Origin: a virus | DNA: 64,000 nucleotides | Virus record (IMG/VR): IMGVR_UViG_3300046787_000129 | Span: 1-64,000 of that record | Direction: 5' to 3' (one strand) | Part shown: piece after piece, positions 4,791-18,905 of the stretch | Numbering within the stretch: the stretch's first letter is position 1 | How the letters are laid out: every line of letters starts with the position of its first letter | Position numbers and translations under genes: made by a program | Notes under the pieces: model-generated | What the model was told of the DNA's origin: nothing | The model's database searches: none | What the model saw: only the letters and a program-made list of their open reading frames with translations

Positions 4791-5592
4791 GCTATCCAGG
4801 ATATGTCTGATATAACACCATATAAGGCTACAGGAGACCTCAGAGATATACACCATACCCAATGAACAGGTTAATGTTATACCCCCTCAGATTGGCACAC
4901 AGGGCTATTTAGACTATGTTTTATAGATAGTTATCCACAGATATGTCTTACTGTTGTTGATAACTTATCTCATTAAGAGATGTTGGGAAATGAAGTATGG
5001 GTAATTATGCACACTATATCGTAAATGTCAAGCTTTTTGCATAATATTCTGTCTAGCCCCATGTTTTCCGCATGATCTTCTGTTGATATATATGCCCATA
5101 TATTATTGATAATAATTCTCATTAACATATATCTTTTGGGGAAATATATGCCCATTCGTAATCCTTTTTAATATAAACATATATAAAATATGGGCAAATA
5201 AAAACCCCTATCGTAATGTATTATTACTAGGGGTATATTTACTACTAGGGAGTGTTCTTATATCAAGAGATGATCTATCTACCCTGGCCTTTGGCCACAA
5301 GCAAAGCTTGTATATATCTTTATATTAACAGTGTTATAGATCTGGGGGATTTAAAGATAGGATCGTAATCCCTATAGGTAGTATATACAATACATCTTTG
5401 ATCTCTTACGATCGTTTAGCTCAATAAACAATCGTATGGAAACATGTAAAGAAAAAGCCATATATTTTACATATCAAGCTGACGTGTAAAGTATATAGCG
5501 TTTATTTGTTATATCTTATACTAGGGATTATAGAGCTTGATCGTAAATACCCCCAACTTCTGGGATTTTTTAGAGTCCTTCGTAATGTCCTA

Positions 5593-5677: not shown

Positions 5678-5950
5678 TTATTGCTCTGATGACTCTAGCA
5701 AATCGTCTAGCGTTTCAAAGCCTGTATCCTCATCAACCTCTAGACCCTCTAGCAAAAGGGCAAAGGTTTCTTCGATAAAGGCAGTAGCAACAGGCGTAGT
5801 AACAACAATGTCATTTGCGATAGCATAGGCAAGTGGCAAGCCAATGTCGTTGTATTCAATGAAGTCAGCAAACTCTACATCTTGACGATAGTTTAGCCAT
5901 AGGTCAGCAAGAATACTTGCCTTATCTTGAAAAGTGGTTGGTTCGCTCAT
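5678..5950 (-). CDS. acidic hypothetical protein
   Basis: 90 aa; followed by GC hairpin 5643-5667. Confidence 0.75.
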   Translation of the reverse strand: MSEPTTFQDKASILADLWLNYRQDVEFADFIEYNDIGLPLAYAIANDIVVTTPVATAFIEETFALLLEGLEVDEDTGFETLDDLLESSEQ

Positions 5951-6128
5951 TTATTCTTTCCTGTTCTGCTATGGCACTTTCGGTGACAATCAGCAATCTG
6001 TTGTAGTGGATAGGGGGTTTCATTTGTGCTAGGTAAAAACCTACATCATCTAAGTTTACATCAACTGGGCTAATGATTTCGGCAATCTTACTCGCAATCT
6101 TTTCTTCTCTAACGGTTGTTCGTTTCAT
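5922..6128 (-). CDS. hypothetical protein
   Basis: 68 aa; AAGGA RBS; TTGACT-N17-TACAAT promoter upstream. Confidence 0.7.
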   Translation of the reverse strand: MKRTTVREEKIASKIAEIISPVDVNLDDVGFYLAQMKPPIHYNRLLIVTESAIAEQERINERTNHFSR

Positions 6129-6171
6129 AGTGTTCCTTATTTAGTTGTATGCTTATTGTATCAAGTTTAGA

Positions 6172-6270
6172 GGGGGAAGTCAAGACCCAATTTCTCAACT
6201 TCCCCCAGTGGTACCACCAGAAACCCAAAACCAGTGGTACCGTTGGCAAGGAGTAATCTCAACCCACCAA
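6172..6270 (-). ncRNA. candidate three-hairpin antisense RNA with UUGGGU loops
   Basis: Three consecutive stems; G-U pairs extend the stems only on the - strand; loops AAUUGGG(U) and UUUUGGGUUU. Confidence 0.5.
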
Positions 6271-6280
6271 GTATATTAAA

Positions 6281-6670
6281 TTAAATAATTATCTCTTCAG
6301 CCATGGATACCCACCAGTTTGGTTCTGGTAGGACGTCGTCAACATTAATAGTTTTAATAAGGCTAGCGATACGTGGTGGAGCAAAAGCTAGGAAGTTCTC
6401 TGCAAAGTCCCACCAGTCTGAACCATACTCATCCTGTGGATAGTGCTCTGCAATGAGCGCTGTCTCTTCAGGGGTGCATTCGATAAGCAATGGCGTCTCA
6501 TACTTCCTTGTGCCCCTTGCGTCCTCTACGTATACATAAGGGTCAATGGTAAGGGTAGTGGCCCAAGTGGTCCCATTCTCTGCATACCAGTCTGACTCTT
6601 CAGTCCAGTCCGCTTCTTCAGTATAGATTTCACGGTAGAAGATGTTAAGATCGATAGTCTTACTAGACAT
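6281..6670 (-). CDS. acidic hypothetical protein
   Basis: ORF 6281..6712; probable start MSSKTID. Confidence 0.7.
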   Translation of the reverse strand: MSSKTIDLNIFYREIYTEEADWTEESDWYAENGTTWATTLTIDPYVYVEDARGTRKYETPLLIECTPEETALIAEHYPQDEYGSDWWDFAENFLAFAPPRIASLIKTINVDDVLPEPNWWVSMAEEIII

Positions 6671-6932
6671 ACCATAGCCCTTCCTTATCAGTGTCGTGGC
6701 CATCGCAACCACAGCAGTTCAAACAAAACTCTTGCTGGTCTGGACATTTGAATACGTCCATGATTACTTCACTGTCTGAAGTTAGATAAACCTGACAGTC
6801 ATCACATACTTCCACTTCAGTCTCGTCCAGTAGTTGGAAGACCTCATTAGATTCTACGTGACGATACATCTTCTCGATAATCTCAGACTGCCAGTCATCG
6901 TCAACTAGCAGGGTGTACTTGGTTACCTTCAT
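6663..6932 (-). CDS. Cys-rich hypothetical protein
   Basis: CDDC...C...CLNCCGC..H. Confidence 0.7.
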   Translation of the reverse strand: MKVTKYTLLVDDDWQSEIIEKMYRHVESNEVFQLLDETEVEVCDDCQVYLTSDSEVIMDVFKCPDQQEFCLNCCGCDGHDTDKEGLWYV

Positions 6933-7318
6933 TTACATCCCTCGTGTCCACAGCAGTTGTTACAGGTGTATTCCATGTCGTCTTCTTGGCAAGCATAAGC
7001 GTCATCATTGAAAGGATTATCACATACCTCGCAAGTTTCGATGTAGAGGTCAACCTCGTAGTCAGTATCTGGCTCGAAAGGAATCTCAGTTACATAGTAG
7101 CCTAGGCGATTTACAAAGTGATAGCCTTCGCTGATTACAAAGCCGTAATCAATCTGTGAATAAGTCCAGATGGTGTTTTCTGGGGCAGAGCGAACAAAGT
7201 CCAACTCTTCACCATAAGTCTCATACATAAAGTTATCTGGTTGCTTACTAATACTATTCTTGATTGGTTTGAACTGTTCCTCAAACTCTGACCAAGTTAG
7301 TGATACTCTTTTAGACAT
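6929..7318 (-). CDS. hypothetical protein with C-terminal Zn finger
   Basis: Start MSKRVSL after AAGGA-ACCCA; GYHFVNRLGY; CEVC...CNNCCGH. Confidence 0.75.
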   Translation of the reverse strand: MSKRVSLTWSEFEEQFKPIKNSISKQPDNFMYETYGEELDFVRSAPENTIWTYSQIDYGFVISEGYHFVNRLGYYVTEIPFEPDTDYEVDLYIETCEVCDNPFNDDAYACQEDDMEYTCNNCCGHEGCK

Positions 7319-7332
7319 TGGGTTATCCTTTT

Positions 7333-7842
7333 TTAGAAGTGGAAGTCTACAGGTATAAGATACCATGAATCATTGAGATTGTCAAGGGTATATTTAGGAT
7401 TAGTTGTAGCATTATGCATATCGTAGAAGTAGGCATTATAATTCCATGCCCCTTGGAACATCTCAATCATCATATTCAGTTCATACAACTCAAACGAGTA
7501 ATCTGTGTTACCGTCATACTTATCTAGATAGTTATTGATATCAATATTCTTCTCTTGGAAACGTGAGCGGTATCCAGCAAACTCAACCTTACGATTACTA
7601 ATCATTCTATCAATCATAGCCACATACTCATCAGGCTTCTTTGCATAACTAATAATATGATTAGGGCTAGACTGATAAGGGTCACCGTCTACAAATCTAC
7701 CGCCACCGATAACAAACCAGTCATACCAAGCATTGGTTGCGTATTCGTTTCCGCCTAGTTCACTGTTCAAAGTATCTTCAACAGTTCGCATAGCCATATC
7801 TTCGTCGTCTGCTTGAACTGCGATGTATTGCAAAACGTGCAT
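7333..7842 (-). CDS. phage hypothetical protein
   Basis: WYDWFVIGGGR...VDFHF. Confidence 0.75.
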   Translation of the reverse strand: MHVLQYIAVQADDEDMAMRTVEDTLNSELGGNEYATNAWYDWFVIGGGRFVDGDPYQSSPNHIISYAKKPDEYVAMIDRMISNRKVEFAGYRSRFQEKNIDINNYLDKYDGNTDYSFELYELNMMIEMFQGAWNYNAYFYDMHNATTNPKYTLDNLNDSWYLIPVDFHF

Positions 7843-7884
7843 TGGGTTTCCGTTCTTTGGGTATGTATCTATTATGACAGGTGG

Positions 7885-8220
7885 TTACTCATTTGTCAAG
7901 TCTTTTAGCAAAAAACCTGGGAAAGAATAATCTGTATCCTGATAGGTAACAATGCCACCAGGGAAATCTACAACGATAGGGTCATAGGATTCTTCGCCAC
8001 ATTCGTAACTAGATAGACCATAGCCAGTTTCACTATTCCAATCGTTGCCAATCAGCTGCGAGACAACGATACGCATAGCATAAGATGTGTCACCCCAGCG
8101 TGGTTCAGCTTTTGCGAGGGCAGATTGAAGGTCCGTAATCTTGCTATCTCCACCCCAGTGTGAATACAACCATACACTGCCTTTAGAGTCTCGTAATTCA
8201 AAGTTAGTACGTGCTCCCAT
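7885..8220 (-). CDS. phage hypothetical protein (LYSHWGG motif)
   Basis: 111 aa, AAGGAG RBS. Confidence 0.75.
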   Translation of the reverse strand: MGARTNFELRDSKGSVWLYSHWGGDSKITDLQSALAKAEPRWGDTSYAMRIVVSQLIGNDWNSETGYGLSSYECGEESYDPIVVDFPGGIVTYQDTDYSFPGFLLKDLTNE

Positions 8221-8387
8221 GGGGAACTCCTTATTGGGTTAGGGTTTATTTGATTACTACTACGTTACCACGGATTCGGGGAAAAGTCAAGCCTATCTTA
8301 ATAAGTATTTTATAGTTAATAGTATTAGTTAGAAAGAGGCCGACCACAGATCCCCTCCGCTGTCAAGCGGAGAGGTCTGCGTGTCTG

Positions 8388-9395
8388 CTATGCCATAGCG
8401 ACTTGCTGAACAATCTTTAGCAAGCGGTTCTTCTCGGCGTTCACCATTGGGTCAAAGCCTGAAGCACTAGCAAGGATAGACTCGTTAGAGCCACCTCGTC
8501 CGTTACGATACCAGTCAAGACGCTCAGTTAGTCCGTTCAAAGCACCCCAAGCAGTTCCAGCAATCATGCCGTTTTGGTTGCCACGATAGATAGACTGGAT
8601 TAGGTCAATCTTGCCATCATACTTCTTCTGTGAACCCTTAGCGTCCTTGTCTGGGGCAGGGTAGGCAAGAGCAACAATCTCGTCAAACTGACGCTCAGTG
8701 ATAGTCTTTTCAATCATAGCCTGTGCCATCTTGTCAAACTCGTCCATGTATTTGTTAGCCAAGCCAAGAGCCTCACGAGCAACCGCAATCTTACCCTCTG
8801 CGGTCTGGGTGTGGCGAATCTTGAAAGACTGCTTAGGACCTTTTCGGTTAGCACCAAGAGCAAGGTTTAGAGTGTTAGCACATACAACACGAACAGGGGT
8901 AATGCTTGCCTGAATAGCAACAGAGCCATCATGGCTAGTGTTGATTAGCAGATAGGTGTTGATTTTGTCACTAACGCCAGTAGGGTCTAGGACAGTCTCA
9001 CGCTCAAGAGCAAGCGAACCGAATACCTGACGCCCTCCCTTGATAGAGCCAGCAGTCTCCCAGCGTCCTCCGCCATCTAGAATGTTGTCACCAAAGGCGA
9101 ACAAGTCCTCGTTCTGAAGAACCTTGTAACGCTCACCAACAACGCCAAGAATGTCGTTCTCGTCCTTGTTGAATGGGTTAGTTCGGGTAACGAATGAGTA
9201 GGTCTTGTCTGAGTTGAAACCATCAGGGGTAGCAACATCTTCTAGACGAACATTCCAGTTATCTAGGTGTGCCAATGATAGCATTTTCTGAGTAGTGACT
9301 TCTTCGGTAAAGACTGTTCCAAGTCCATGCCATGCTGGCTCTCGCAATGAAGCGAAAGCGGTCTGTCCATCTACTGATTCTAGTTCGTGAGCCAT
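8388..9395 (-). CDS. DUF932 (TIGR03299-like phage/plasmid) protein
   Basis: MAHELE...PAWHGLG...ETAGS..GG...SHDGS.....TPVRVVCANTL...RHT signature. Confidence 0.9.
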   Translation of the reverse strand: MAHELESVDGQTAFASLREPAWHGLGTVFTEEVTTQKMLSLAHLDNWNVRLEDVATPDGFNSDKTYSFVTRTNPFNKDENDILGVVGERYKVLQNEDLFAFGDNILDGGGRWETAGSIKGGRQVFGSLALERETVLDPTGVSDKINTYLLINTSHDGSVAIQASITPVRVVCANTLNLALGANRKGPKQSFKIRHTQTAEGKIAVAREALGLANKYMDEFDKMAQAMIEKTITERQFDEIVALAYPAPDKDAKGSQKKYDGKIDLIQSIYRGNQNGMIAGTAWGALNGLTERLDWYRNGRGGSNESILASASGFDPMVNAEKNRLLKIVQQVAMA

Positions 9396-9550
9396 AAGAG
9401 ACTTCTTTCTTTAGTGGGTTATCTTGATGTATAACTAGATTACCAAAGAAACTAGTGTTTGTCAAGACTATTTAGCAAAATATTTTGGCGTGTCTTAAAG
9501 CTTATCGTAACTTGATCAGGAATAAAGGGGGCAGGGGCCGACCCCAAAAG

Positions 9551-9578
9551 GGAGCAGTTTATCAACTTGCTCAGGTTG
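9551..9578 (-). ncRNA. H-type pseudoknot motif, copy 1
   Basis: CAAC-CUGAGCAA-GUUG-AU-AAAC-UGCUC directly after a stop codon. Confidence 0.55.
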
Positions 9579-9585
9579 TTTGTTA

Positions 9586-10029
9586 CTAGGCTTCGTTACA
9601 GTAGATTGGGTCTGTCGTGTAGTCCAGAATCGTGTGGCTGTAAGAATCAATGCTCACATCAATGTCGCTCTCAATGTCAGCGGTATCAGGACCATCTTCA
9701 CCAAAAGGAACTTCAATGTCAATGTTGATAGTAACATTCAACTCATACGACTTGGTAGTTGTAAGGTCAATCTCTGCCTGCTCTGCGATGTTCTTGATAG
9801 TGTCAATGTCACCGTCAAGTTCATCTGCTACATACTGAAGAACCTTGCGAATCTTTAGTTCATAGTTAGCCTTAGCAGAACGCAACTCAAAGTGCTGTGA
9901 ACGTGCTTCTTCAAGTTGCTTAGTTAGTTTATCAATGTTCTCTTGCTTGGCAATAGCCTCTGACTCTAGTAGAGCGATACGACCTGCGATTGATGGGTGG
10001 TCTAGAACTGACATTTCTTCTTCTTTCAT
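9586..10029 (-). CDS. coiled-coil hypothetical protein
   Basis: 147 aa ORF. Confidence 0.75.
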   Translation of the reverse strand: MKEEEMSVLDHPSIAGRIALLESEAIAKQENIDKLTKQLEEARSQHFELRSAKANYELKIRKVLQYVADELDGDIDTIKNIAEQAEIDLTTTKSYELNVTINIDIEVPFGEDGPDTADIESDIDVSIDSYSHTILDYTTDPIYCNEA

Positions 10030-10187
10030 TAGAGGGCTTTTCTTAGTGCTTCTAGTCTATCAATGACCTCAGACAATAACTCTCGGTAGTCACTTGCTCT
10101 TAGGTCTTTGTTGTATGTTTCGTGGTAGTCCTTATCGAACTCGTCTGACCATTCCCGAAGGATAGCCCTTGCCTTACTCTTCCTCAT
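10029..10187 (-). CDS. small hypothetical protein (52 aa)
   Basis: MRKSKARAILREW...; read by hand. Confidence 0.5.
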   Translation of the reverse strand: MRKSKARAILREWSDEFDKDYHETYNKDLRASDYRELLSEVIDRLEALRKAL

Positions 10188-10353
10188 CTTCATCTTCCTC
10201 AGCGTCTTCCAATTCTGCTACCTCAATAGAATCGACAGCAAAATAGTTTAGATTCTCTTCCCAATCCCAACCCATAGACTCTGCTTCTTCCCTAGAGTCT
10301 GCTTCTACTTCTCCAACATACTCAATGGTAGTTGTTACTTCATACTTTGGCAT
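10174..10353 (-). CDS. small very acidic protein (59 aa)
   Basis: MPKYEVTTTIEYVGEVEADSREEAE...EDEDEEE. Confidence 0.65.
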   Translation of the reverse strand: MPKYEVTTTIEYVGEVEADSREEAESMGWDWEENLNYFAVDSIEVAELEDAEEDEDEEE

Positions 10354-10357
10354 TTAC

Positions 10358-10486
10358 TTATCCTAACATCATCATTTGGTATTGTAGCCAGTCGTCAAAC
10401 TCATACTGGCAGTCTTGGCATAGGGGGTGAACCGAGTCTACAGGGTCATAGTCTAGTGGTTCTTCACATTGGTAGCATTTATTCAT
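10358..10486 (-). CDS. small Zn-finger protein (42 aa), leaderless
   Basis: CYQC...CQDC; ATG 7 nt after -10. Confidence 0.6.
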   Translation of the reverse strand: MNKCYQCEEPLDYDPVDSVHPLCQDCQYEFDDWLQYQMMMLG

Positions 10487-10516
10487 AGTGTCTACTTTAG
10501 CATTACCCTCAGACAT

Positions 10517-10612
10517 TTAGTCCTCCATGTCATAGCAACGTTTACATTCTCCGAACCAAGTATCTGGTATCTGTGTTACCCCACAGGTCTTACACGTTAT
10601 TAGGTTAGACAT
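10517..10612 (-). CDS. small Zn-finger protein (31 aa)
   Basis: CKTC...CKRC. Confidence 0.55.
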   Translation of the reverse strand: MSNLITCKTCGVTQIPDTWFGECKRCYDMED

Positions 10613-10816
10613 TTAGCCCTCTACAATCCTAAACTCATACCCATTATCGCCATCTTGCTTTGCCTCTTCAAACTCTGACTCTTTTGAAAAGTAGAAGAAG
10701 ATGTTATCATCATCCTCGTCTAGAGAGTTCCACTCACCGTCAAGTGAAACGGTAGTTGCGTATTGAACTCCAGGTTCATCGTGCCATTCAATAACGACAT
10801 CCCTATACTCAGCCAT
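10613..10816 (-). CDS. acidic hypothetical protein
   Basis: DDNIFFYF motif; probable start MAEYR. Confidence 0.65.
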   Translation of the reverse strand: MAEYRDVVIEWHDEPGVQYATTVSLDGEWNSLDEDDDNIFFYFSKESEFEEAKQDGDNGYEFRIVEG

Positions 10817-11040
10817 TAGCAATCTCCATTCGAATACAACTCACTTGGCACACCTAAGCGACCTAGGACAACTTCTCTACCTGCGATACTTCCCTCAAGA
10901 TAATCAACAAAACTATCATTGATGTCATACTGTTCCATCTCTAGGCGGTAGGCAACAATCTCAGAGATTAGCAACTCACATAACTCATCTAGGTTGCCAA
11001 TACCGTAGTCTGCGTTTCTGTCTAGAACAATCTTGCTCAT
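10816..11040 (-). CDS. hypothetical protein
   Basis: 74 aa, GAAAGGA RBS. Confidence 0.7.
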   Translation of the reverse strand: MSKIVLDRNADYGIGNLDELCELLISEIVAYRLEMEQYDINDSFVDYLEGSIAGREVVLGRLGVPSELYSNGDC

Positions 11041-11086
11041 TGGATTTCCTTTCGTTATGCTTCTATTGTAGGGGTAGGGTCAGACA

Positions 11087-11296
11087 TTATACATACTCGT
11101 CTAGATACTCTTGGATGTCCTCACCATTTAGGCAAGCAAGGGCAAAGATGATACGCTCTGAATCTGGCAGGGTAGATAGGATGTCCCACTGCTCATCAGT
11201 AAGAGCGTCAGTAGGGAAGATAACAATCTCCTCGTTCTGAGAGTATGAACCATCGTGAGCAACAAAAGCAACATCGTTCTGGTATTCGTATGACAT
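11087..11296 (-). CDS. acidic hypothetical protein
   Basis: Start MSYEYQ after AAGGAG. Confidence 0.7.
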   Translation of the reverse strand: MSYEYQNDVAFVAHDGSYSQNEEIVIFPTDALTDEQWDILSTLPDSERIIFALACLNGEDIQEYLDEYV

Positions 11297-11429
11297 GGGT
11301 TTCTCCTTTGTTTGATTACTATAACTATACAACTACCCTCAGACATTTAAGGGATTTCGTACGGCGTGTCTTAAAGCTTTTGAATAAAGGGTGGCAGGGG
11401 TCGGCCCTTTTTGATCAGCTGTCAAGGTA

Positions 11430-11585
11430 AAAGAAAACCCCCTAGCAGTATGGAGGGATTTCCTCTATTATGTCTAGGGAGTTCTATTTCGCCAAGAGTC
11501 CTTGCGGTTATTCCTGACTTGCTATTTTTATCGTGTTTGCCATCACGCCTGTAAGCCGTTGCCTAGGACACTTACAGGAGGCTTG
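11430..11585 (-). ncRNA. candidate structured RNA ending in a terminator
   Basis: CCUGUAAG/CUUACAGG, CGUG/CACG, CC-GCAA-GG and CCCUAG/CUAGGG stems then U-run; no ORF. Confidence 0.35.
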
Positions 11586-11590
11586 GTTAG

Positions 11591-11622
11591 TGAGCAGTTT
11601 ACCTAGACTTGCTCAGGTCTTA
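11591..11622 (-). ncRNA. H-type pseudoknot motif, copy 2
   Basis: AGAC-CUGAGCAA-GUCU-AGGU-AAAC-UGCUCA after a stop codon. Confidence 0.55.
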
Positions 11623-11632
11623 GTTCATCTTA

Positions 11633-12076
11633 TTAGATTAGGTCAATGACCGAAGAATAAGACGAGGCTGATACTTCCTCTTGGAGAGTCATACGAAGAA
11701 TACGCAGGTTCTTCTCAAGGATTTCCTTGCGAGTAGTGTATTCACGACCAAAGTAGGTCTTGTCGTTTGGCTTTGCTGGCTCAGTTGGTCGCTCTGGGAA
11801 ACCTAGTGCCTGAGAGTCAAAGTCTACTGAGATACCGCCACGGTAGTTAGTAGAGATACGGATAGGAGAGTTGCTATCAGTTCCAAGATTGCTTGGGTCA
11901 CTAATAGCCTCAATAACCTTTGCGGATAGGGAAGCCTCGAAAGCCTTTACCTGTTCCTTGTAAGCCTTGTATTCGTCAGCGTATGAGGCAACAGCGTTGT
12001 CAATCTTTGCGATAGACGCTTCAATGTCTGCGATTAGAGTTGATACTGGGATTTTTACTGAGATAGCACGAGCCAT
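11633..12076 (-). CDS. hypothetical protein (147 aa)
   Basis: Start MARAISV after ACCCA box. Confidence 0.75.
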   Translation of the reverse strand: MARAISVKIPVSTLIADIEASIAKIDNAVASYADEYKAYKEQVKAFEASLSAKVIEAISDPSNLGTDSNSPIRISTNYRGGISVDFDSQALGFPERPTEPAKPNDKTYFGREYTTRKEILEKNLRILRMTLQEEVSASSYSSVIDLI

Positions 12077-12213
12077 TGGGTGACTACTTTCTTTATTGGG
12101 TTTATTTGTTATTACAAGTTTAGCATAGGGGTTATACATTTGTCAAGGGGCAAACAGTTTCTAGATTTGCTTACCCCTCGACAAAGGGATTAGTTTACGC
12201 TTTCCATAGGCGG

Positions 12214-12250
12214 TGAGCAGTTATTTTCACAAAGACATACTCAGGTCTTT
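12214..12250 (-). ncRNA. H-type pseudoknot motif, copy 3
   Basis: AAAGAC-CUGAGUAU-GUCUUU...AAC-UGCUCA after a stop codon. Confidence 0.5.
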
Positions 12251-12267
12251 TCCCAACTGAATGGGTA

Positions 12268-12423
12268 TTAGTTGTCTGCCTTTACAGTAGACCAACGAGG
12301 TGAACCATTTACATCAAGACGAACTCGGAACGAGCCGTTCTGGTTCTTTACAACTTCCTGAATGACACCTGACACGCCAGACTTAGCGGTGGTGAACTGT
12401 GAGCCAACAGTTAGAGCGTTCAT
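12268..12423 (-). CDS. small beta-barrel (SH3/KOW-like) protein, 51 aa
   Basis: MNALTVGSQFTTAKSGVSGVIQEVVKNQNGSFRVRLDVNGSPRWSTVKADN; fold is inferred. Confidence 0.65.
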   Translation of the reverse strand: MNALTVGSQFTTAKSGVSGVIQEVVKNQNGSFRVRLDVNGSPRWSTVKADN

Positions 12424-12781
12424 AGTTTTGCTTCTTTCTTTAGGGGTGATTTGTTTACTTATCTATTATGACACAAGGAGTAGAGAATGTCAAGCACATT
12501 TGATAACTAAATGATAACAACATTTCTTTTTTTATTCTTGGTGTTTAGTTCTCGTTTCCTTGTATTACTATTATGGGGCATAACGGTATGTTTGTCAAGT
12601 TGAAAGTGCCTTTTTTTATTGTGGGTTTTCACAAAGTTTGGGGAAAATCTTTGTCTATCTTAAACTTGACAAAAGCTGATCTTGGGGGTCGGCCCCCTTT
12701 CGGGGGACTTGTCAAGTCACTGATTGATTAGGAAGAATGCTAGAAATAGAATCCCGATGATAGATAGTTCTAGGATAGGCA

Positions 12782-13303
12782 TTACTCTGCAGACCCCCTA
12801 ACAACAATCCAGATTAGCGCCTGCATTGCACGTGGCGTCATTCCATACTTAGTTGCAACGGTAGTTACAGCGTCTGCCATAACCTTATACTGACCTTGGG
12901 TAGGCGTCTTCTTTTCGATACCTAATGCACGTAACATCCATACGTCAATAACTACAGCGTCTTCATTACCTGCAATAGCCTTAGCGAATGCATTAGTCTT
13001 CTGACCCTTTAGCGCTTCGAATCCCTTATCGAATGCAGCGTTAGCCATACGAATGTTATTGCCTAGCGCAACTACAGTCTCACCTAGGCTAAACTTGATA
13101 GCGTTAGTAACGTTACGTGCCCAACGTTCACGTGGGCTGAATGCTGATACGATAGTTGCCCCAACTTCAAGGGTAACGTCAAGGTTACGTGCAACCTCTT
13201 CTGCAACACGCTCTGCGTCAAGATACCATTTCGACGCTTGTTCAACCTGACCGAATGTTGCACGGCTTGCAAGTTCTGAATAAATCTCTACATAGTTAGT
13301 CAT
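12782..13303 (-). CDS. DUF7178-like phage protein (HhH-glycosylase-like fold suspected)
   Basis: WY..A.........A.I.SA.SPR..W..N ... K...F ... VVIDVWM ... QA..W pattern. Confidence 0.65.
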   Translation of the reverse strand: MTNYVEIYSELASRATFGQVEQASKWYLDAERVAEEVARNLDVTLEVGATIVSAFSPRERWARNVTNAIKFSLGETVVALGNNIRMANAAFDKGFEALKGQKTNAFAKAIAGNEDAVVIDVWMLRALGIEKKTPTQGQYKVMADAVTTVATKYGMTPRAMQALIWIVVRGSAE

Positions 13304-13358
13304 TGGGTGACTCTTTCTTTTGGGTTATTGGATTATGAAAATAATACTAACAGACTTA

Positions 13359-13573
13359 TTAGATAAAGTCAAATACATCGCCATCGAATCCGCCAATATC
13401 TAAGTCTGCCATTAGTTCACTAGGCGTGATCTCACCTTCGGCCATCATTGCGAATAGCTCTCTTACGTACTCTTCATCCATTATTTCACCTTCTCAAGAA
13501 TAGCGGCTAGTTGCCTAAGTTGTTCGGGGGTAAGGTTATTGATAACCTCATTATTGATTACATCTTCAAACAT
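13359..13573 (-). CDS. two coupled microproteins (13481-13573, 30 aa; 13359-13481, 40 aa)
   Basis: Read by hand; overlapping stop/start. Confidence 0.5.
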
Positions 13574-13781
13574 TACATGCCCAATCCCCTGCGTCATGGA
13601 AATAGCGTTCAACATCTGACCACGCCGTTTCACCCTTGAAATACTTTGTCTTACCGTCTAACACGGTCTTGTAGTAACCATGAAAGTTACTAGCATACCA
13701 TACCGTTCCATAGTCACTAGAATAAACTTCATCCCATGAACTAACTTCGGATACTTTAGTCTGTCGGGTTACAAACTGCAT
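13566..13781 (-). CDS. hypothetical protein
   Basis: 71 aa, AAGGAG RBS; KYFKGETAWSD. Confidence 0.7.
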   Translation of the reverse strand: MQFVTRQTKVSEVSSWDEVYSSDYGTVWYASNFHGYYKTVLDGKTKYFKGETAWSDVERYFHDAGDWACNV

Positions 13782-13821
13782 TTTGGCTCCTTTAGGTTAT
13801 AGAATAAGGTTAGCAGATTAG

Positions 13822-13992
13822 TTACTCATTGTCAAGGGCTTCACGCAATTTTGTTTGGCGTGTCCCCTTGTATTTCTTGGGGGTAATGACTTTAGCCTTA
13901 CCTTCCTTTAGCATAGACTGAAATAACGCTTGGCTCTCTGCCTTGCGAATAGCCTCGTTTACTTTACCTAATGGCTTCATCTTCTTCTTCAT
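13822..13992 (-). CDS. small basic protein (56 aa), leaderless
   Basis: MKKKMKPLGK...KKYKGTR; ATG 6 nt after -10. Confidence 0.6.
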   Translation of the reverse strand: MKKKMKPLGKVNEAIRKAESQALFQSMLKEGKAKVITPKKYKGTRQTKLREALDNE

Positions 13993-14132
13993 AGTTATAC
14001 ATTACCATTACCCTCAGACATTTAACCAGCTTTCGGGGAAATATTTTATCTATCTTAATTGACTTGACATTTGGTAAGAAAAGGGCCGACCAGATCCAGG
14101 AGCTTTTGTCAAGTCCCCAGTCTGGCGTGTCG

Positions 14133-14297
14133 CTATTCGTTTACGGCTTCAGTGAATCTCTTAGAGTCAAAGCGTGGGTTATCCTTCTTGAATAGTTCAA
14201 TGAACGAGTCTAGCAGATAGCCAGTATCTAGGTTCTCATCATTCTCGAAAGCGTTTAGGATTCTGGCTACCTCTACATAGTCTTTACGGGTCATCAT
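14133..14297 (-). CDS. small phage protein (MTRKDY...DNPRFD..RF type)
   Basis: 54 aa read by hand. Confidence 0.65.
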   Translation of the reverse strand: MMTRKDYVEVARILNAFENDENLDTGYLLDSFIELFKKDNPRFDSKRFTEAVNE

Positions 14298-14299
14298 TA

Positions 14300-14476
14300 T
14301 TAGTTGCCTCGGTTTTCTGCTAGGCGTAGGATAAACTGGGCAGTCTTTAGGTCAACTGCGGCTGACGCATAGCCAACCATTGTGGCTAGGGCTAGGTCAT
14401 TACGGTCACCAAACTCTGCCTTTAGAATAGCAAGAGCCTTGTCCATTAGTTCTAGTGAGTTCTTTTCCATTTTCAT
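14300..14476 (-). CDS. hypothetical protein
   Basis: Probable start MKMEKNS; the upstream extension in the ORF track is promoter sequence. Confidence 0.65.
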   Translation of the reverse strand: MKMEKNSLELMDKALAILKAEFGDRNDLALATMVGYASAAVDLKTAQFILRLAENRGN

Positions 14477-14521
14477 TTCCTGTTCTTTAGATGTTTTTAG
14501 TTTAGCAGTAGGGTCAGACAT

Positions 14522-14641
14522 TTAGCGTCTGAACACCTCTGCCTCTGGGTGGTCTGTTAGAAAATCCGACATGTCTAGGGTGTGGACAGCGGTAACGGCG
14601 GTGGTGCCTAGCACGTTGGTGAAGGTCATTAGAGTGTACAT
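14522..14641 (-). CDS. microprotein (39 aa)
   Basis: GAAAGG RBS, own promoter. Confidence 0.55.
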   Translation of the reverse strand: MYTLMTFTNVLGTTAVTAVHTLDMSDFLTDHPEAEVFRR

Positions 14642-14694
14642 TTTGTACCTTTCGTTTTTGTTTATGTATTTAGATTAGCATGTGGGTCAGACAT

Positions 14695-14844
14695 TTATTC
14701 TTCGTCTAGCAGATACTCTAGGAAATCATAGGCTTCGACAGCCTCGACAATGGTCATTAGACCTTTATAGTCGTTACACTCAGGGCAGACCATAACGCTT
14801 TCTGGGTATAGATTTTCACAGTAGACACAAACGTTCTTGAACAT
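14695..14844 (-). CDS. Zn-ribbon microprotein (49 aa)
   Basis: CVYC...CPEC; GAGGT RBS. Confidence 0.65.
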   Translation of the reverse strand: MFKNVCVYCENLYPESVMVCPECNDYKGLMTIVEAVEAYDFLEYLLDEE

Positions 14845-15002
14845 TTATTACCTCTTTCTTTGTTACTATAAATCTAGCATAGGGGTCAGACATTTAACCC
14901 CCGATCTTTCTAGGAATCTTAGAACGTTATCTTAACGTTACGTAAATAGTTATTAACAGAGTTATCCACAGGGCCGACCACACCCGAAGGTGTTTGTCAA
15001 GT

Positions 15003-15263
15003 CTACTCCTGAAAGAAGCTTGGGGGATTGTCATCCCAGTCTGGCTCAGAGTAGTTAGGGTCGTTCTCGAAACGGAAGAATTCTTCGGTGGTGCAGTTGT
15101 GGTCATCCATGGTTATCTCCATTCGTTAGGGTCAAAGTCGAAAGGGCTATAGGCATCTGAGCCACAGCCACAGCAAGGGCGGTCTTCGCAATCACACATT
15201 TGGGTCTCCTTCTGATAGAAAGTCTTGGATGTCTTCATCTGTAAAATCACCGTATCTAGCCAT
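15003..15263 (-). CDS. three coupled microproteins (15192-15263, 15113-15199 with CEDRPCCGC, 15003-15110)
   Basis: Read by hand; the first is leaderless, the others follow GGAG. Confidence 0.5.
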
Positions 15264-15421
15264 GTGATAAATCTAACACACATGTCAGACATTTACAAAT
15301 CCAACACGCCGCTTTCGGGGATTCTGTGGATCGATCTTAACTAACGTAACTTGACAAAAGTGGGTCCAGGGGCCGACTTTTTTAGCTGATTTGTCAAATC
15401 GACACGCCGATAAAAAGTGGA

Positions 15422-15517
15422 TTATTTTTCTGGGGTAGCGATAGCGGTTTCTAGGGTAACAATTCCAGCAATAGCCTTATCAAACTCTTCCCAAGTGTCA
15501 AAAGTAAGTTCAATCAT
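15422..15517 (-). CDS. microprotein (31 aa)
   Basis: MIELTFDTWEEFDKAIA... Confidence 0.5.
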   Translation of the reverse strand: MIELTFDTWEEFDKAIAGIVTLETAIATPEK

Positions 15518-15520
15518 TCT

Positions 15521-15712
15521 CTAAGCCTTTCCAATGATGTTTTCGTTGTAGTAGCGAACAACCTCGCCAACAGCCTTAGTCCCGTATACTCGGATAACTC
15601 GCTGATACTCGTCAGAGGCTTCTTTTATCTCTCGGTTATCGTTGCCCATTGAAGCAACGTGGTAGTTAGAAACTACCTTGTAAATCTCATCAGTAATCTG
15701 ACCTAGGTTCAT
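15521..15712 (-). CDS. hypothetical protein
   Basis: Probable start MNLGQ. Confidence 0.6.
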   Translation of the reverse strand: MNLGQITDEIYKVVSNYHVASMGNDNREIKEASDEYQRVIRVYGTKAVGEVVRYYNENIIGKA

Positions 15713-15763
15713 TTCATTTCTCATTTCTTTTGTTACTAACAGTCTAGGGGTTGGGTCAGACAA

Positions 15764-15880
15764 TTAGGCTGTTACACCGTATTGTGCTACGCAAGACTCG
15801 CAAGCCTTTTCGTTGTTGTAGAGGTTACCCTCGCAGATTACACAGTGTCCTGTTGCTACATTTACCTTTAGTGAGTTCAT
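15764..15880 (-). CDS. Zn-finger microprotein (38 aa)
   Basis: CVIC...CESC; AAGGAG RBS. Confidence 0.6.
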   Translation of the reverse strand: MNSLKVNVATGHCVICEGNLYNNEKACESCVAQYGVTA

Positions 15881-16456
15881 CTTGAACTCCTTTCTTTTTT
15901 ATTTCTTTTTCTTTATCTATATATATTTAAACATACATTATGCGATTTGTCAAGTCTATTTGGTAACAAACTTATAACGGTTTTTTTAGAGATATCATAC
16001 AAGACTTATCCACAGAGTTATCCACAGGGCCGACCCCTTTCGGGATCGTTTGTCAAGCTGACACGCCGTGTCCTAGAGAAATAAGAAGGCCATCACGAAA
16101 CTTGAAAATGTCTTCTTCGCTTAGGTGCTTTAGAAAAAAGGTGTTGTGGTATTTGCGAATAAATAGAAGGGCACAATCAAGGCAATTGCTACTGCCAAGG
16201 CAACCGCACATTAGTTTCCCCTAGTGCGGTATAGGCTAACAAAAGCGGTAATGGCAAAAGCAACCATTACAATCTGAAGGATAGAGGTTGCTAGGCGTGT
16301 GATGTCCATTAGGGTTACTCGCTTTCTGGGGTAGTGAATAGGTCTGAAGGGTTAGATAGCATTAGGTCAATCTTGAAGATTAGTTCTTCTAGTTCTTGGG
16401 TAGTCATTTTTGTTACCTTTCTTGATTACTTAGATTCTATTACAGGGGTCAGACAA

Positions 16457-16651
16457 TTAGGCGTTCGGGCCATACCAGATACGGACAACCAAAGCGGTAG
16501 CAAAGCCAAAGAACACTAGCCCAGCGATGAACGCTACTGAAGCCATCTCATAGATACCATCTAGACATAGGTCAATAGAGAATGCCATTAGGGTGAAGAA
16601 TACGGTTGAAGCGAATAGGAGGATGAAGTTCTGGATTGAGTAACGAGACAT
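16457..16651 (-). CDS. two-TM membrane protein
   Basis: Two hydrophobic segments. Confidence 0.65.
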   Translation of the reverse strand: MSRYSIQNFILLFASTVFFTLMAFSIDLCLDGIYEMASVAFIAGLVFFGFATALVVRIWYGPNA

Positions 16652-16710
16652 TTTCTGTTCTTTCTTTTAGGTTATGTATTTATCTTAGTATGTGCCTAGG
16701 ACATTGTCAA

Positions 16711-16845
16711 CTAGGATAGGGTCTCAATCATCACGATTGTGTAACCCTGAGCCTCTAGGTTCTTGACTACTGTTTCTTCCATTGAAGCAGGGTAAGCAGC
16801 AGAGGTTAGTGGGCTTGTTGGGTGAGTCATTGTGATTCTTAGCAT
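16711..16845 (-). CDS. microprotein (44 aa), first gene of the leftward region
   Basis: MLRITMTHP...; own promoter 16877-16905. Confidence 0.55.
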   Translation of the reverse strand: MLRITMTHPTSPLTSAAYPASMEETVVKNLEAQGYTIVMIETLS

Positions 16846-17104
16846 TTGTATTTCTTCTTTCTTTCTTTATACCTAAAGCCTATACCCTACCTAGGACATT
16901 GTCAATACGACACGCCGATAAATGGGAAAGTTTTTTAACAATCTTAGATAGTTATCCACAGAGTTATCCACAGGGCCGACCCCATGGGTCGCCATTTGTC
17001 AAGCCTATTTAGATAACGATTAGATAACAAACAATGTGATCGAGATCGCCCATATTGTCGGGGGTATCTGATAGGCTATACCCATATAGAGAAAGGTACC
17101 ACAC

Positions 17105-17223
17105 ATGACCATAGAACAATCAATCGCATTCATTATATTCATTATCGCTATCACTATCGCCTAATGGAATGGGTTATCTTGGCAGTAGTAGTAGCCATCC
17201 TTGTCATGGTGAAGGATAGCTAA
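17105..17223 (+). CDS. two 19-aa hydrophobic micropeptides (17105-17164, 17164-17223)
   Basis: MTIEQSIAFIIFIIAITIA and MEWVILAVVVAILVMVKDS; GAAAGG RBS; TAATG coupling. Confidence 0.55.
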
Positions 17224-17347
17224 CGTTATGAATCTGTTACAAAAAGATTTCCGACACGCCGTGTATGGATTTGACAAATGCTTAGTTATCTGATTAACTA
17301 TAGGTAGATAAATAAATAGTAAGTTTCAAAAAAGAAAGGACATTCAC

Positions 17348-18663: not shown

Positions 18664-18905
18664 GTTTCTATATTAGCACAAAGCTTTAAACTTTGCAAAC
18701 ATATATCCGCAAATCTTAAAACCATATTTAATAAAATCTTAAAACTATATTTATATATTTCTACCTATGTGAATGCTTGCATTCAAAGTGTAGATGGTTA
18801 CTCTTATTCCGCCGAATTTTTCGCCGCTTCTTTTTGTTCCATTTTGCGAACTTATCCACATAGTTATCCACAGGTGTTTAAATATTCATTTATAATTGTA
18901 CTATT

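Follow-up and report, generated by a model that had tools for sequence, protein, structure and literature searches.

The stretch of DNA analysed here (the window) comprises the first 64,000 nucleotides of IMG/VR virus record IMGVR_UViG_3300046787_000129, the 109,629-bp genome, rated complete and with 43% GC, of an uncultured, lytic-type phage from a lake. From 5678 to 17154 some 40 small genes form a leftward arm on the minus strand. Most lack an assigned function, and DUF932 and DUF7178 alone are firm family assignments. Spread along this arm is an array of promoters that read TGTC-N12-TANNNT and resemble those of PafBC, the master activator of the actinobacterial DNA-damage response. Thirteen are on the minus strand (10054-16898), all co-directed with the arm, one is on the plus strand at 17056, and each of the 14 stands 5' of a small gene. 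An earlier note on this DNA had given their composition as eleven TGTCTGA, two TGTCCTA and one TGTCGG, and this is what we find.

The thirteen leftward sites fall into three groups. Two are hybrids that join the TGTCCTAGG element at -26 to a TTGACA -35: one at 16877..16905 (-35 matched at 6/6 positions, -10 TAGGCT), with an ATG 32 nt after the -10 and a 44-amino-acid (aa) open reading frame (ORF) at 16845-16711, the other at 16682..16710 (-10 TAAGAT), ahead of a 64-aa membrane-like ORF at 16651-16457. Four have neither a -35 nor the TGn of an extended -10: 16434..16455 (TGTCTGACCC, TAGAAT, 30-aa ORF), 15741..15762 (TGTCTGACCC, TAGACT, 67-aa ORF 15724-15521), 11324..11345 (TGTCTGAGGG, TATAGT, 69-aa ORF 11296-11087) and 11065..11086 (TGTCTGACCC, TACAAT, 74-aa ORF 11040-10816). 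The remaining seven carry TG at -15/-14. Three of these each precede an ORF, namely 14871..14892 (TGTCTGACCC, TAGATT, 49-aa zinc-ribbon-like ORF 14844-14695), 14672..14693 (TGTCTGACCC, TAATCT, 39-aa ORF) and 14499..14520 (TGTCTGACCC, TAAACT, 56-aa ORF 14470-14300), and a fourth, 10054..10075 (TGTCTGAGGT, TAGACT), lies within the 3' end of the preceding ORF and serves a 142-aa ORF at 10014-9586. The last three are apparently leaderless: 15270..15291 (TGTCTGACAT, TAGATT) has the ATG of a short ORF 6 nt after the -10, 13999..14020 (TGTCTGAGGG, TAATGT) has the ATG of a 56-aa basic protein (13992-13822) at 6 nt, and 10494..10515 (TGTCTGAGGG, TAAAGT) has that of a zinc-ribbon ORF, starting at 10486, at 7 nt. 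The rightward promoter, at 17056..17077 in the divergent region, has the canonical form ATTGTCGGGGG-N-TAGGCT, with a ribosome-binding site and an ATG 27 nt downstream that opens an 18-aa hydrophobic ORF. A lone rightward site at 5026-5047 (plus strand), TAAATGTCAAG-N-TGCATAATAT, shares the flank and has an extended -10; it lies outside the range first noted and may be a further member of the class.

The spacing of these sites is far from random. On the minus strand of 10000-17300 there are 13 sites at N12 and zero to two at each other spacing from N8 to N17, whereas first-order Markov simulations of the stretch give 0.54 on average and never more than 4. The window as a whole holds 24 TGTC-N12-TANNNT sites versus 11.6 +/- 3.3 in shuffles, and the stricter TGTCTGA-N9-TANNNT occurs 11 times in the whole 109.6-kb genome, always within the 7-kb array stretch. 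The GTC triplet occupies -27 to -25, exactly 12 nt 5' of the -10 hexamer, in 14/14 sites. That hexamer is a TAnnnT (consensus TAnAnT) in which the A at position 2 and the T at position 6 never vary. Aligned, the sites give T-A-A-(A/T)-TGTCTGA-(CCC or GGG)-n3-(TGc)-TAnAnT, a longer consensus than the one first noted. In the leftward sites, +5 is G in 11/13 and +6 is always A, +4 being the base directly after GTC. Apart from the hybrids (numbered 16898 and 16703), the other eleven agree with TTGACA in no more than 1-4 of 6 positions. All eleven are missed by a sigma-70 consensus scan, which picks up the TTGACA promoters alone, as the earlier statement that the promoters mostly lack a -35 implied.

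The position of the genes is also informative. Ten of the 13 leftward sites stand 17-41 nt before a start codon, most with a recognisable ribosome-binding site between, while at the remaining three (14020, 10515, 15291) the ATG 6-7 nt after the -10 is where a leaderless transcript would be expected to begin. The motif contains an ATG of its own (TAAATGTC). We considered this ATG as a start codon, and TAAATG as a translational coupling signal, and rejected both. The motif ATG is mostly no start because its frame ends within a few codons, and the genes begin 17-41 nt downstream.

The earlier note had also listed three promoters (16682, 16877 and 12117) as carrying both elements, and thus dual input. 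TTGACA is present at all three, and TGTC at the first two; the third, TTGACA-N18-TAAACT at 12117..12146 ahead of a conserved 147-aa ORF (12076-11633), reads TGTA at -26, has lost the GTC, and is of the sigma-A type. The co-presence of TTGACA and TGTC at a promoter would suggest dual input. Two canonical TTGACA-N17-CATAAT promoters without TGTC lie in 12465..12598 (12598-12570 and 12493-12465, minus strand), ahead of a conserved 51-aa ORF (12423-12268), and are candidates for PafBC-independent, immediate promoters.

Related lake phages carry the same arrays. A first scan of IMG/VR with AAATGTCTGACCC-N6-TANNNT returned 91 stretches, with 2-6 copies each on about 25 contigs. These loci are homologous early arms, in which the DUF932 protein and the 51-aa, 147-aa and 56-aa ORFs of the window each recur in about 30 loci (the basic protein at 13992-13822 in those of 29 relatives). 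Nearly all of their sites have the AAATGTC flank. Over the 733 kb of these loci, positions +4 to +6 of all TGTC-N12-TANNNT sites read TGA (207), AGA (91), GGT (35), TGT (32), ATA (27), CTA (26), AGT (21) and GTA (21). A 90-kb relative whose DUF932 protein is 86% identical carries the textbook consensus, AAATGTCGGTGGT-N6-TATAAT, in at least 12 copies. A second scan, with AAATGTCGGTGG-N7-TANNNT, gave many multi-copy contigs; its figures, and those for the pooled family below, are for the matches listed. Here +4 to +6 read GGT (265), AGT (164), AGA (93) and TGA (10), and 51/79 loci share an early protein with the window.

Pooling the loci of both scans and leaving out the sites used for finding them gave at least 1,089 unique sites in 198 loci, with the consensus aAA(A/t)TGTC(A/G/t)G(T/A)(G/C)(G/C). 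The core AATGTC-N12-TAnnnT is invariant in the family, and TGTC(G/A)GTGG is the form that most of its sites take. A -35 is present in 17% of these sites and TGn in 50%. The distance from the -10 to the first ATG is bimodal, with 104 sites in a narrow peak at 6-7 nt and a wide second peak at 23-33 nt, as expected if real promoters serve leaderless and leadered genes alike. Sites with A at +6 tend to continue with CC (67%), those with T at +6 with GG (62%). At least two T-variant sites and at least two G/A-variant sites (at +4) occur together in 29/176 loci, so that canonical and TGTCTGA-type forms are mixed in single phages, and one reader presumably serves both. The form in the window, TGTCTGA(CCC/GGG), is best read as a derived subtype of the canonical TGTC(G/A)GTGG of related phages, with T at +4 and GACCC. 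Three points are added by the window: this TGTCTGA/GACCC subtype, the fact that single relatives combine it with canonical sites, and leaderless starts.

A repeated, oriented element in fixed register over a promoter could also be an operator. A phage or host repressor might bind AATGTCnGA(CCC) at every early promoter and shut them off jointly, in a logic comparable to that of the numerous asymmetric stoperators in cluster A mycobacteriophages. The palindrome GTCnGAC, present in 21% of family sites, would suit a dimer, yet most sites lack it, and the canonical form, GGTGG, is asymmetric. Promoters without a -35 would still require something positive, and no repressor-like gene was found by Pfam on 149 ORFs (25 of 70 families listed) or on the 40 ORFs of the early arm. 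We consider an operator very improbable as the explanation of the array, and it could in any case coexist with activation by PafBC.

The GC content of 43% at first sight speaks against an actinobacterial host. We nevertheless take the host to be an actinobacterium, because the phage encodes a WhiB-family protein and because its portal protein is nearest to those of Streptomyces BE-cluster phages (Stanwilliamsviridae; 47% identity, E ~1e-145), whose own GC is about 48%. The WhiB gene lies outside the window at about 92.8 kb; its product scores above the curated cut-off (E 7e-14) and has the Cys pattern and the GVWGG turn, and among 14 control genomes Corynebacterium alone passed that cut-off. 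The layout shared with the Streptomyces phage Coruscant also points to an actinobacterial host despite the GC of 43%, and promoter-to-ATG distances compatible with leaderless starts were counted toward it. Close relatives of the WhiB protein occur on contigs binned into freshwater metagenome-assembled genomes (MAGs) of unrelated phyla. Assigning a host through these bins was rejected, as unrelated phyla mark them as mis-binned phage contigs, which indicate freshwater (lakes) for the phage group and nothing further. Searches of the early arm and of the structural region against cultured phages by blastn gave no match for either.

In actinobacteria, a well-described activator fits this geometry. 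The PafBC motif in vivo is tGTCgg(N10)tA(N3)T, where lower case marks bases at most 50% conserved, with its 5' part at -23 to -28. PafB helix 3 reads the G, the methyl group of the T and the G opposite the C of the GTC triplet, the PafC helix-turn-helix (HTH) touches region 4 of sigma A, and a -35 is absent (PMC8635444). The activating ligand is single-stranded DNA (ssDNA), not single-stranded RNA, lying across both WYL domains (PMC11804915). The earlier note's account of PafBC as established knowledge is borne out by these two papers. The phage sites have the published layout and contain the strict part of the motif, GTC at N12 from TAnnnT. The interpretation it drew is supported in each part that can be checked computationally.

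One such part was a comparison with host recA promoters. The host family and class sampled are those of an 'Aquiluna' MAG, reached through a mis-binned contig; the family is an actinobacterial one that contains freshwater members. Upstream of recA, 29/30 genomes of this family have exactly one GTC-N12-TAnnnT, reading (a/g)ATGTC(G/A)G(T/A/C)GG, and the lower-GC genomes read AAATGTCAGAGG, GATGTCAGTGG and GATGTCTGTGG. Tandem WYL genes are present in all five of five 1.3-1.5-Mb low-GC genomes of the class, four of which have TTGTC(A/G)GTGG-N-TAnnnT adjoining a LexA box upstream of recA. Overall, the RecA-NDp/PafBC consensus stands upstream of recA in 33/35 actinobacterial genomes examined. An extended element, tGTC(G/A)G(T)G(G), is thus common to the recA promoters of freshwater-type actinobacteria, the relatives of the phage and the site at 17056. 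Compared at each column, the recA promoters of hosts (n=34) and those of the phage family show correlations of 0.69 (-2), 0.97 (-1), 0.43 (+4), 0.99 (+5), 0.89 (+6), 0.73 (+7), 0.81 (+8) and 0.99 (+9); further downstream they diverge, the phage family having TGn and TATAAT-like hexamers. The five small host genomes contain 98 TGTCNG-N10-TANNNT sites and 44 with a spacing one base longer. A PafC-type HTH was detected in 57/61 sampled genomes of the class and, among the controls, only in Corynebacterium. Seven of the 61 genomes are unpublished (G047, G011, G019, G028, G040, G036 and G034, all matched), so the tally rests partly on them.

In some of these small low-GC actinobacteria, PafBC-type sites are themselves clustered, within one 25-50-kb stretch each: 9/15 sites in G122:C1:462-510 kb and 6/19 in G099:C1:450-475 kb (loci L282-L286). 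In these clusters the -10 is followed at 6-7 nt by the start of an ORF, and a C5 DNA methyltransferase-like gene is among those present. The clusters may be a PafBC-driven variable or defence island.

Could the sites be plain sigma-A promoters, working through the -10 or extended -10 alone, with TGTC as a spacer feature or as the site of some host factor other than PafBC? Many mycobacterial promoters lack a recognisable -35 (PMC8635444), about half of the family sites (0.40-0.62, depending on the base at +4) are within one mismatch of TATAAT, and TG stands at -15/-14 in 7/13 window sites and half of the family. An extended -10 leaves unaccounted the four window sites (11086, 11345, 15762 and 16455) with neither TGn nor a -35. 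A neutral spacer would not hold AATGTC at a fixed distance over about 1,100 sites, nor would it follow the host recA element at eight flanking columns. An activator also appears to be needed where a -35 exists in only 2/13 window sites and 17% of the family. Plain sigma-A promoters are, on this evidence, a distinctly unlikely account of the array.

If an activator is needed, the phage might bring it. The earlier note had named a phage-encoded WYL factor as the alternative to host PafBC, and for this we find no support. Six-frame searches of the whole genome gave no WYL, HTH_PafC, HTH_11, Sigma70_r2, Sigma70_r4 or T7-type RNA polymerase domain. Pfam on 149 ORFs gave no transcription factor among the 25 of 70 families listed, Pfam on the 40 early-arm ORFs placed only DUF932 and DUF7178 above noise, with no transcription-factor domain, and the conserved early proteins matched unnamed PHROGs only. 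A T4-type activator or co-activator was likewise not seen, in that neither the 149 ORFs nor the six-frame searches gave a DNA-binding or sigma-related domain, the Pfam models of MotA and AsiA not being among those searched.

An adaptor of another kind could still read the AATGTC element and recruit or remodel sigma A, as MotA/AsiA does at T4 middle promoters. Its source would be either expression from the few sigma-A-only promoters or injection along with the DNA, and the likeness of the sites to PafBC promoters would reflect convergence on the same free face of the DNA or descent from a captured system. Such an adaptor would explain why conservation extends to bases that PafB is not known to touch (TAAATGTC upstream, SSS at +7 to +9, T at +4) and why the GACCC subtype is rare among host promoters. 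The layout is also two-tiered, in that small ORFs of wide conservation follow canonical TTGACA promoters. Those behind the promoters at 12598, 12493 and 12146 are the most widely conserved of the arm, 12423-12268 recurring in 31+33 loci and 12076-11633 in 29+16 (second figures among the matches listed), and an adaptor of novel fold would be sought there. Against such an adaptor, searches at Pfam sensitivity showed no DNA-binding, sigma-like or WYL domain in the genome, and the relatives use the exact host consensus, flanks included, mixed with the variant within single genomes. Exact consensus and mixing are simplest if a host factor is the reader, and we regard a phage-encoded adaptor as unlikely.

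We therefore return to host PafBC. The 13 leftward sites and 17056 are, in our view, probably PafBC-type sigma-adaptation promoters, read by host RNA polymerase with sigma A plus host PafBC. Backing this assignment are the motif, its spacing, clustering and orientation, its conservation in the phage group, the match to host recA promoters, the actinobacterial host, and the lack of a PafBC-like or sigma-like gene in the phage. In the mechanism that we propose, host RNA polymerase with housekeeping sigma A would bind the -10 TAnnnT, TGn adding strength at half of the sites. An ssDNA-loaded host PafB-PafC heterodimer, placed between sigma region 4 and the DNA, would replace the -35 contact and read GTC at -27 to -25, which is sigma adaptation. 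We infer both this binding and its dependence on ssDNA. Most of the small, probably early genes of the phage would thereby be coupled to the host's ssDNA alarm, while the sigma-A-only or hybrid promoters (16898, 16703, 12598, 12493 and 12146) could fire without that alarm. The ssDNA might come from host nuclease attack on incoming DNA or from phage replication; that infection itself supplies it, and that the arm is early, we infer from the architecture.

Several observations weigh against this assignment. The base at +4 is T in 11/13 window sites and in 1/34 host recA promoters (G/A in 97%), and +7 to +9 are CCC in 7/13 where hosts have GG. The published leeway at +4/+5 and the mixed forms in relatives do not account for so strong a preference for T. 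TGTCTGA-N9-TAnnnT showed no enrichment in 301 sampled actinobacterial genomes (one of them, G019, unpublished), with at most three sites per genome and no more than in a reversed control; no lineage among the 301 has T at +4 as its norm, and none was found to use TGTCTGA in its own regulon. Host-wide use of the heptamer was rejected as a candidate, as the recurrent matches inspected adjoin tmRNA or unrelated downstream genes. The phage motif is conserved more tightly (TAAATGTC, SSS) than the known PafB base contacts explain. The extended -10 at half of the sites may give activity independent of PafBC, and small early proteins without an assigned fold could conceal an adaptor.

There are several ways in which such wiring could benefit the phage, which we put forward jointly and tentatively, with something short of even confidence. 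In a whole group of abundant lake phages, the genes for host takeover may have come under the control of the ssDNA alarm of the host, so that damage induced by defence feeds the phage. Attack on the incoming genome, by nuclease resection, restriction or stalled replication, would then raise early transcription. TGTCnGACCC might be a tuned version of the element, with another PafBC threshold or affinity, or helped by a small phage protein. Finally, sigma-A-only, hybrid and PafBC-only promoters might form a graded timing cascade without any phage transcription factor.

Should the PafBC reading hold, some of the most abundant freshwater bacteria have lytic phages whose first genes depend on a stress sensor of the host and not on factors of the phages' own. 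This would be a new route of host takeover, in which infection is predicted to respond to DNA damage, UV and nuclease-based defences. The natural promoter variants, roughly 1,100 in number, would then serve as a mutational map of the -26 element, recording which changes PafBC and sigma A accept. The reading would also offer portable damage-inducible promoters for actinobacteria.

Other features of the genome deserve mention. The phage brings its own DNA-damage and stress toolkit, encoded at 64-1146 in the window and in the rest of the genome: RtcB, a pyrimidine-dimer DNA glycosylase, a RecA-like ATPase, Dps/ferritin, GroES, Hsp20, NrdF/NrdI and ThyX. The families that Pfam listed for the 149 ORFs (25 of 70) include these, along with DnaB and methylases. 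The octamer GGCGTGTY occurs 10 times, all at 9.4-17.3 kb (9487-17260), where 1.3 copies are expected. Examples are 16909-16916, 16060-16067, 15401-15408 and 17253-17260 on the minus strand and 11363, 13857 and 14124 on the plus strand, and several copies stand directly 5' of a TTGACA or TGTC promoter. Its core, GTGTC/GACAC, resembles the WhiA box of Streptomyces. GGCGTGTY may be a second promoter input of WhiA/WhiB type, in a phage that encodes a WhiB. Lastly, a minus-strand repeat at ~16990-16940, ~16050-16000, ~14990-14950 and 18852-18872 consists of TTGACAA, a short hairpin and GGTCGGCCC, followed by a pair of tandem DnaA-box-like TGTGGATAA 12 bp apart. This repeat is no ordinary promoter, because the -10 position after TTGACA reads TCGGCC.

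The promoter class itself is already known, and its use in arrays by lytic-type phages was not found described in the literature; our search found no paper linking PafBC to phage promoters. Like the PafBC (RecA-NDp, recA P1-type) promoters of Mycobacterium, Streptomyces and other Actinobacteria (PMC8635444; PMC11804915), the phage sites place GTC 12 nt before a sigma-A -10 TAnnnT and lack a -35. They share G at +5, the A-rich flank at -2/-1 and a transcription start that permits leaderless ORFs, and relatives of the phage carry the full TGTC(G/A)GTGG. They differ in standing in arrays of 13-14 ahead of small genes without assigned function, and not ahead of repair genes, and in the subtype of the window, with T at +4, A at +6 and then CCC or GGG. 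In contrast to host recA promoters, TGn and a near-consensus TATAAT are frequent.

Among cultured phages, the nearest relatives by portal are those of the BE cluster, and Coruscant has the same plan, a leftward arm of small genes, each with a promoter to itself, followed by rightward structural genes. Its left arm (2.8-10.4 kb, minus strand) has twelve cTTGnnn-N-cTGTAAGCT promoters, 6/12 of which have GTC exactly 12 nt before the -10. Unlike the lake phage, Coruscant keeps a -35-like TTG block and an invariant extended -10, has the GTC in only half of its promoters, and lacks the AAATGTC flank. As a cultured relative it may be a possible test bed at the bench for hybrid promoters. PhiC31, which has its own sigma-like gene, was considered as a cultured test case and has no such promoters.

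In logic, the closest analogue is the MotA/AsiA system of T4, though there the activator is encoded by the phage. T4 middle promoters, with a MotA box at -30 and a sigma-70 -10, likewise keep the host -10 and replace the -35 by an element about 12 nt upstream. In T4 that element is read by a protein bridging the DNA and sigma region 4, which is also what we predict for the lake phage. The parallel between PafBC and MotA/AsiA has been drawn before (PMC8635444). T4 encodes both an activator and a co-activator, whereas in the lake phage neither is detectable and the element equals the PafBC box of the host.

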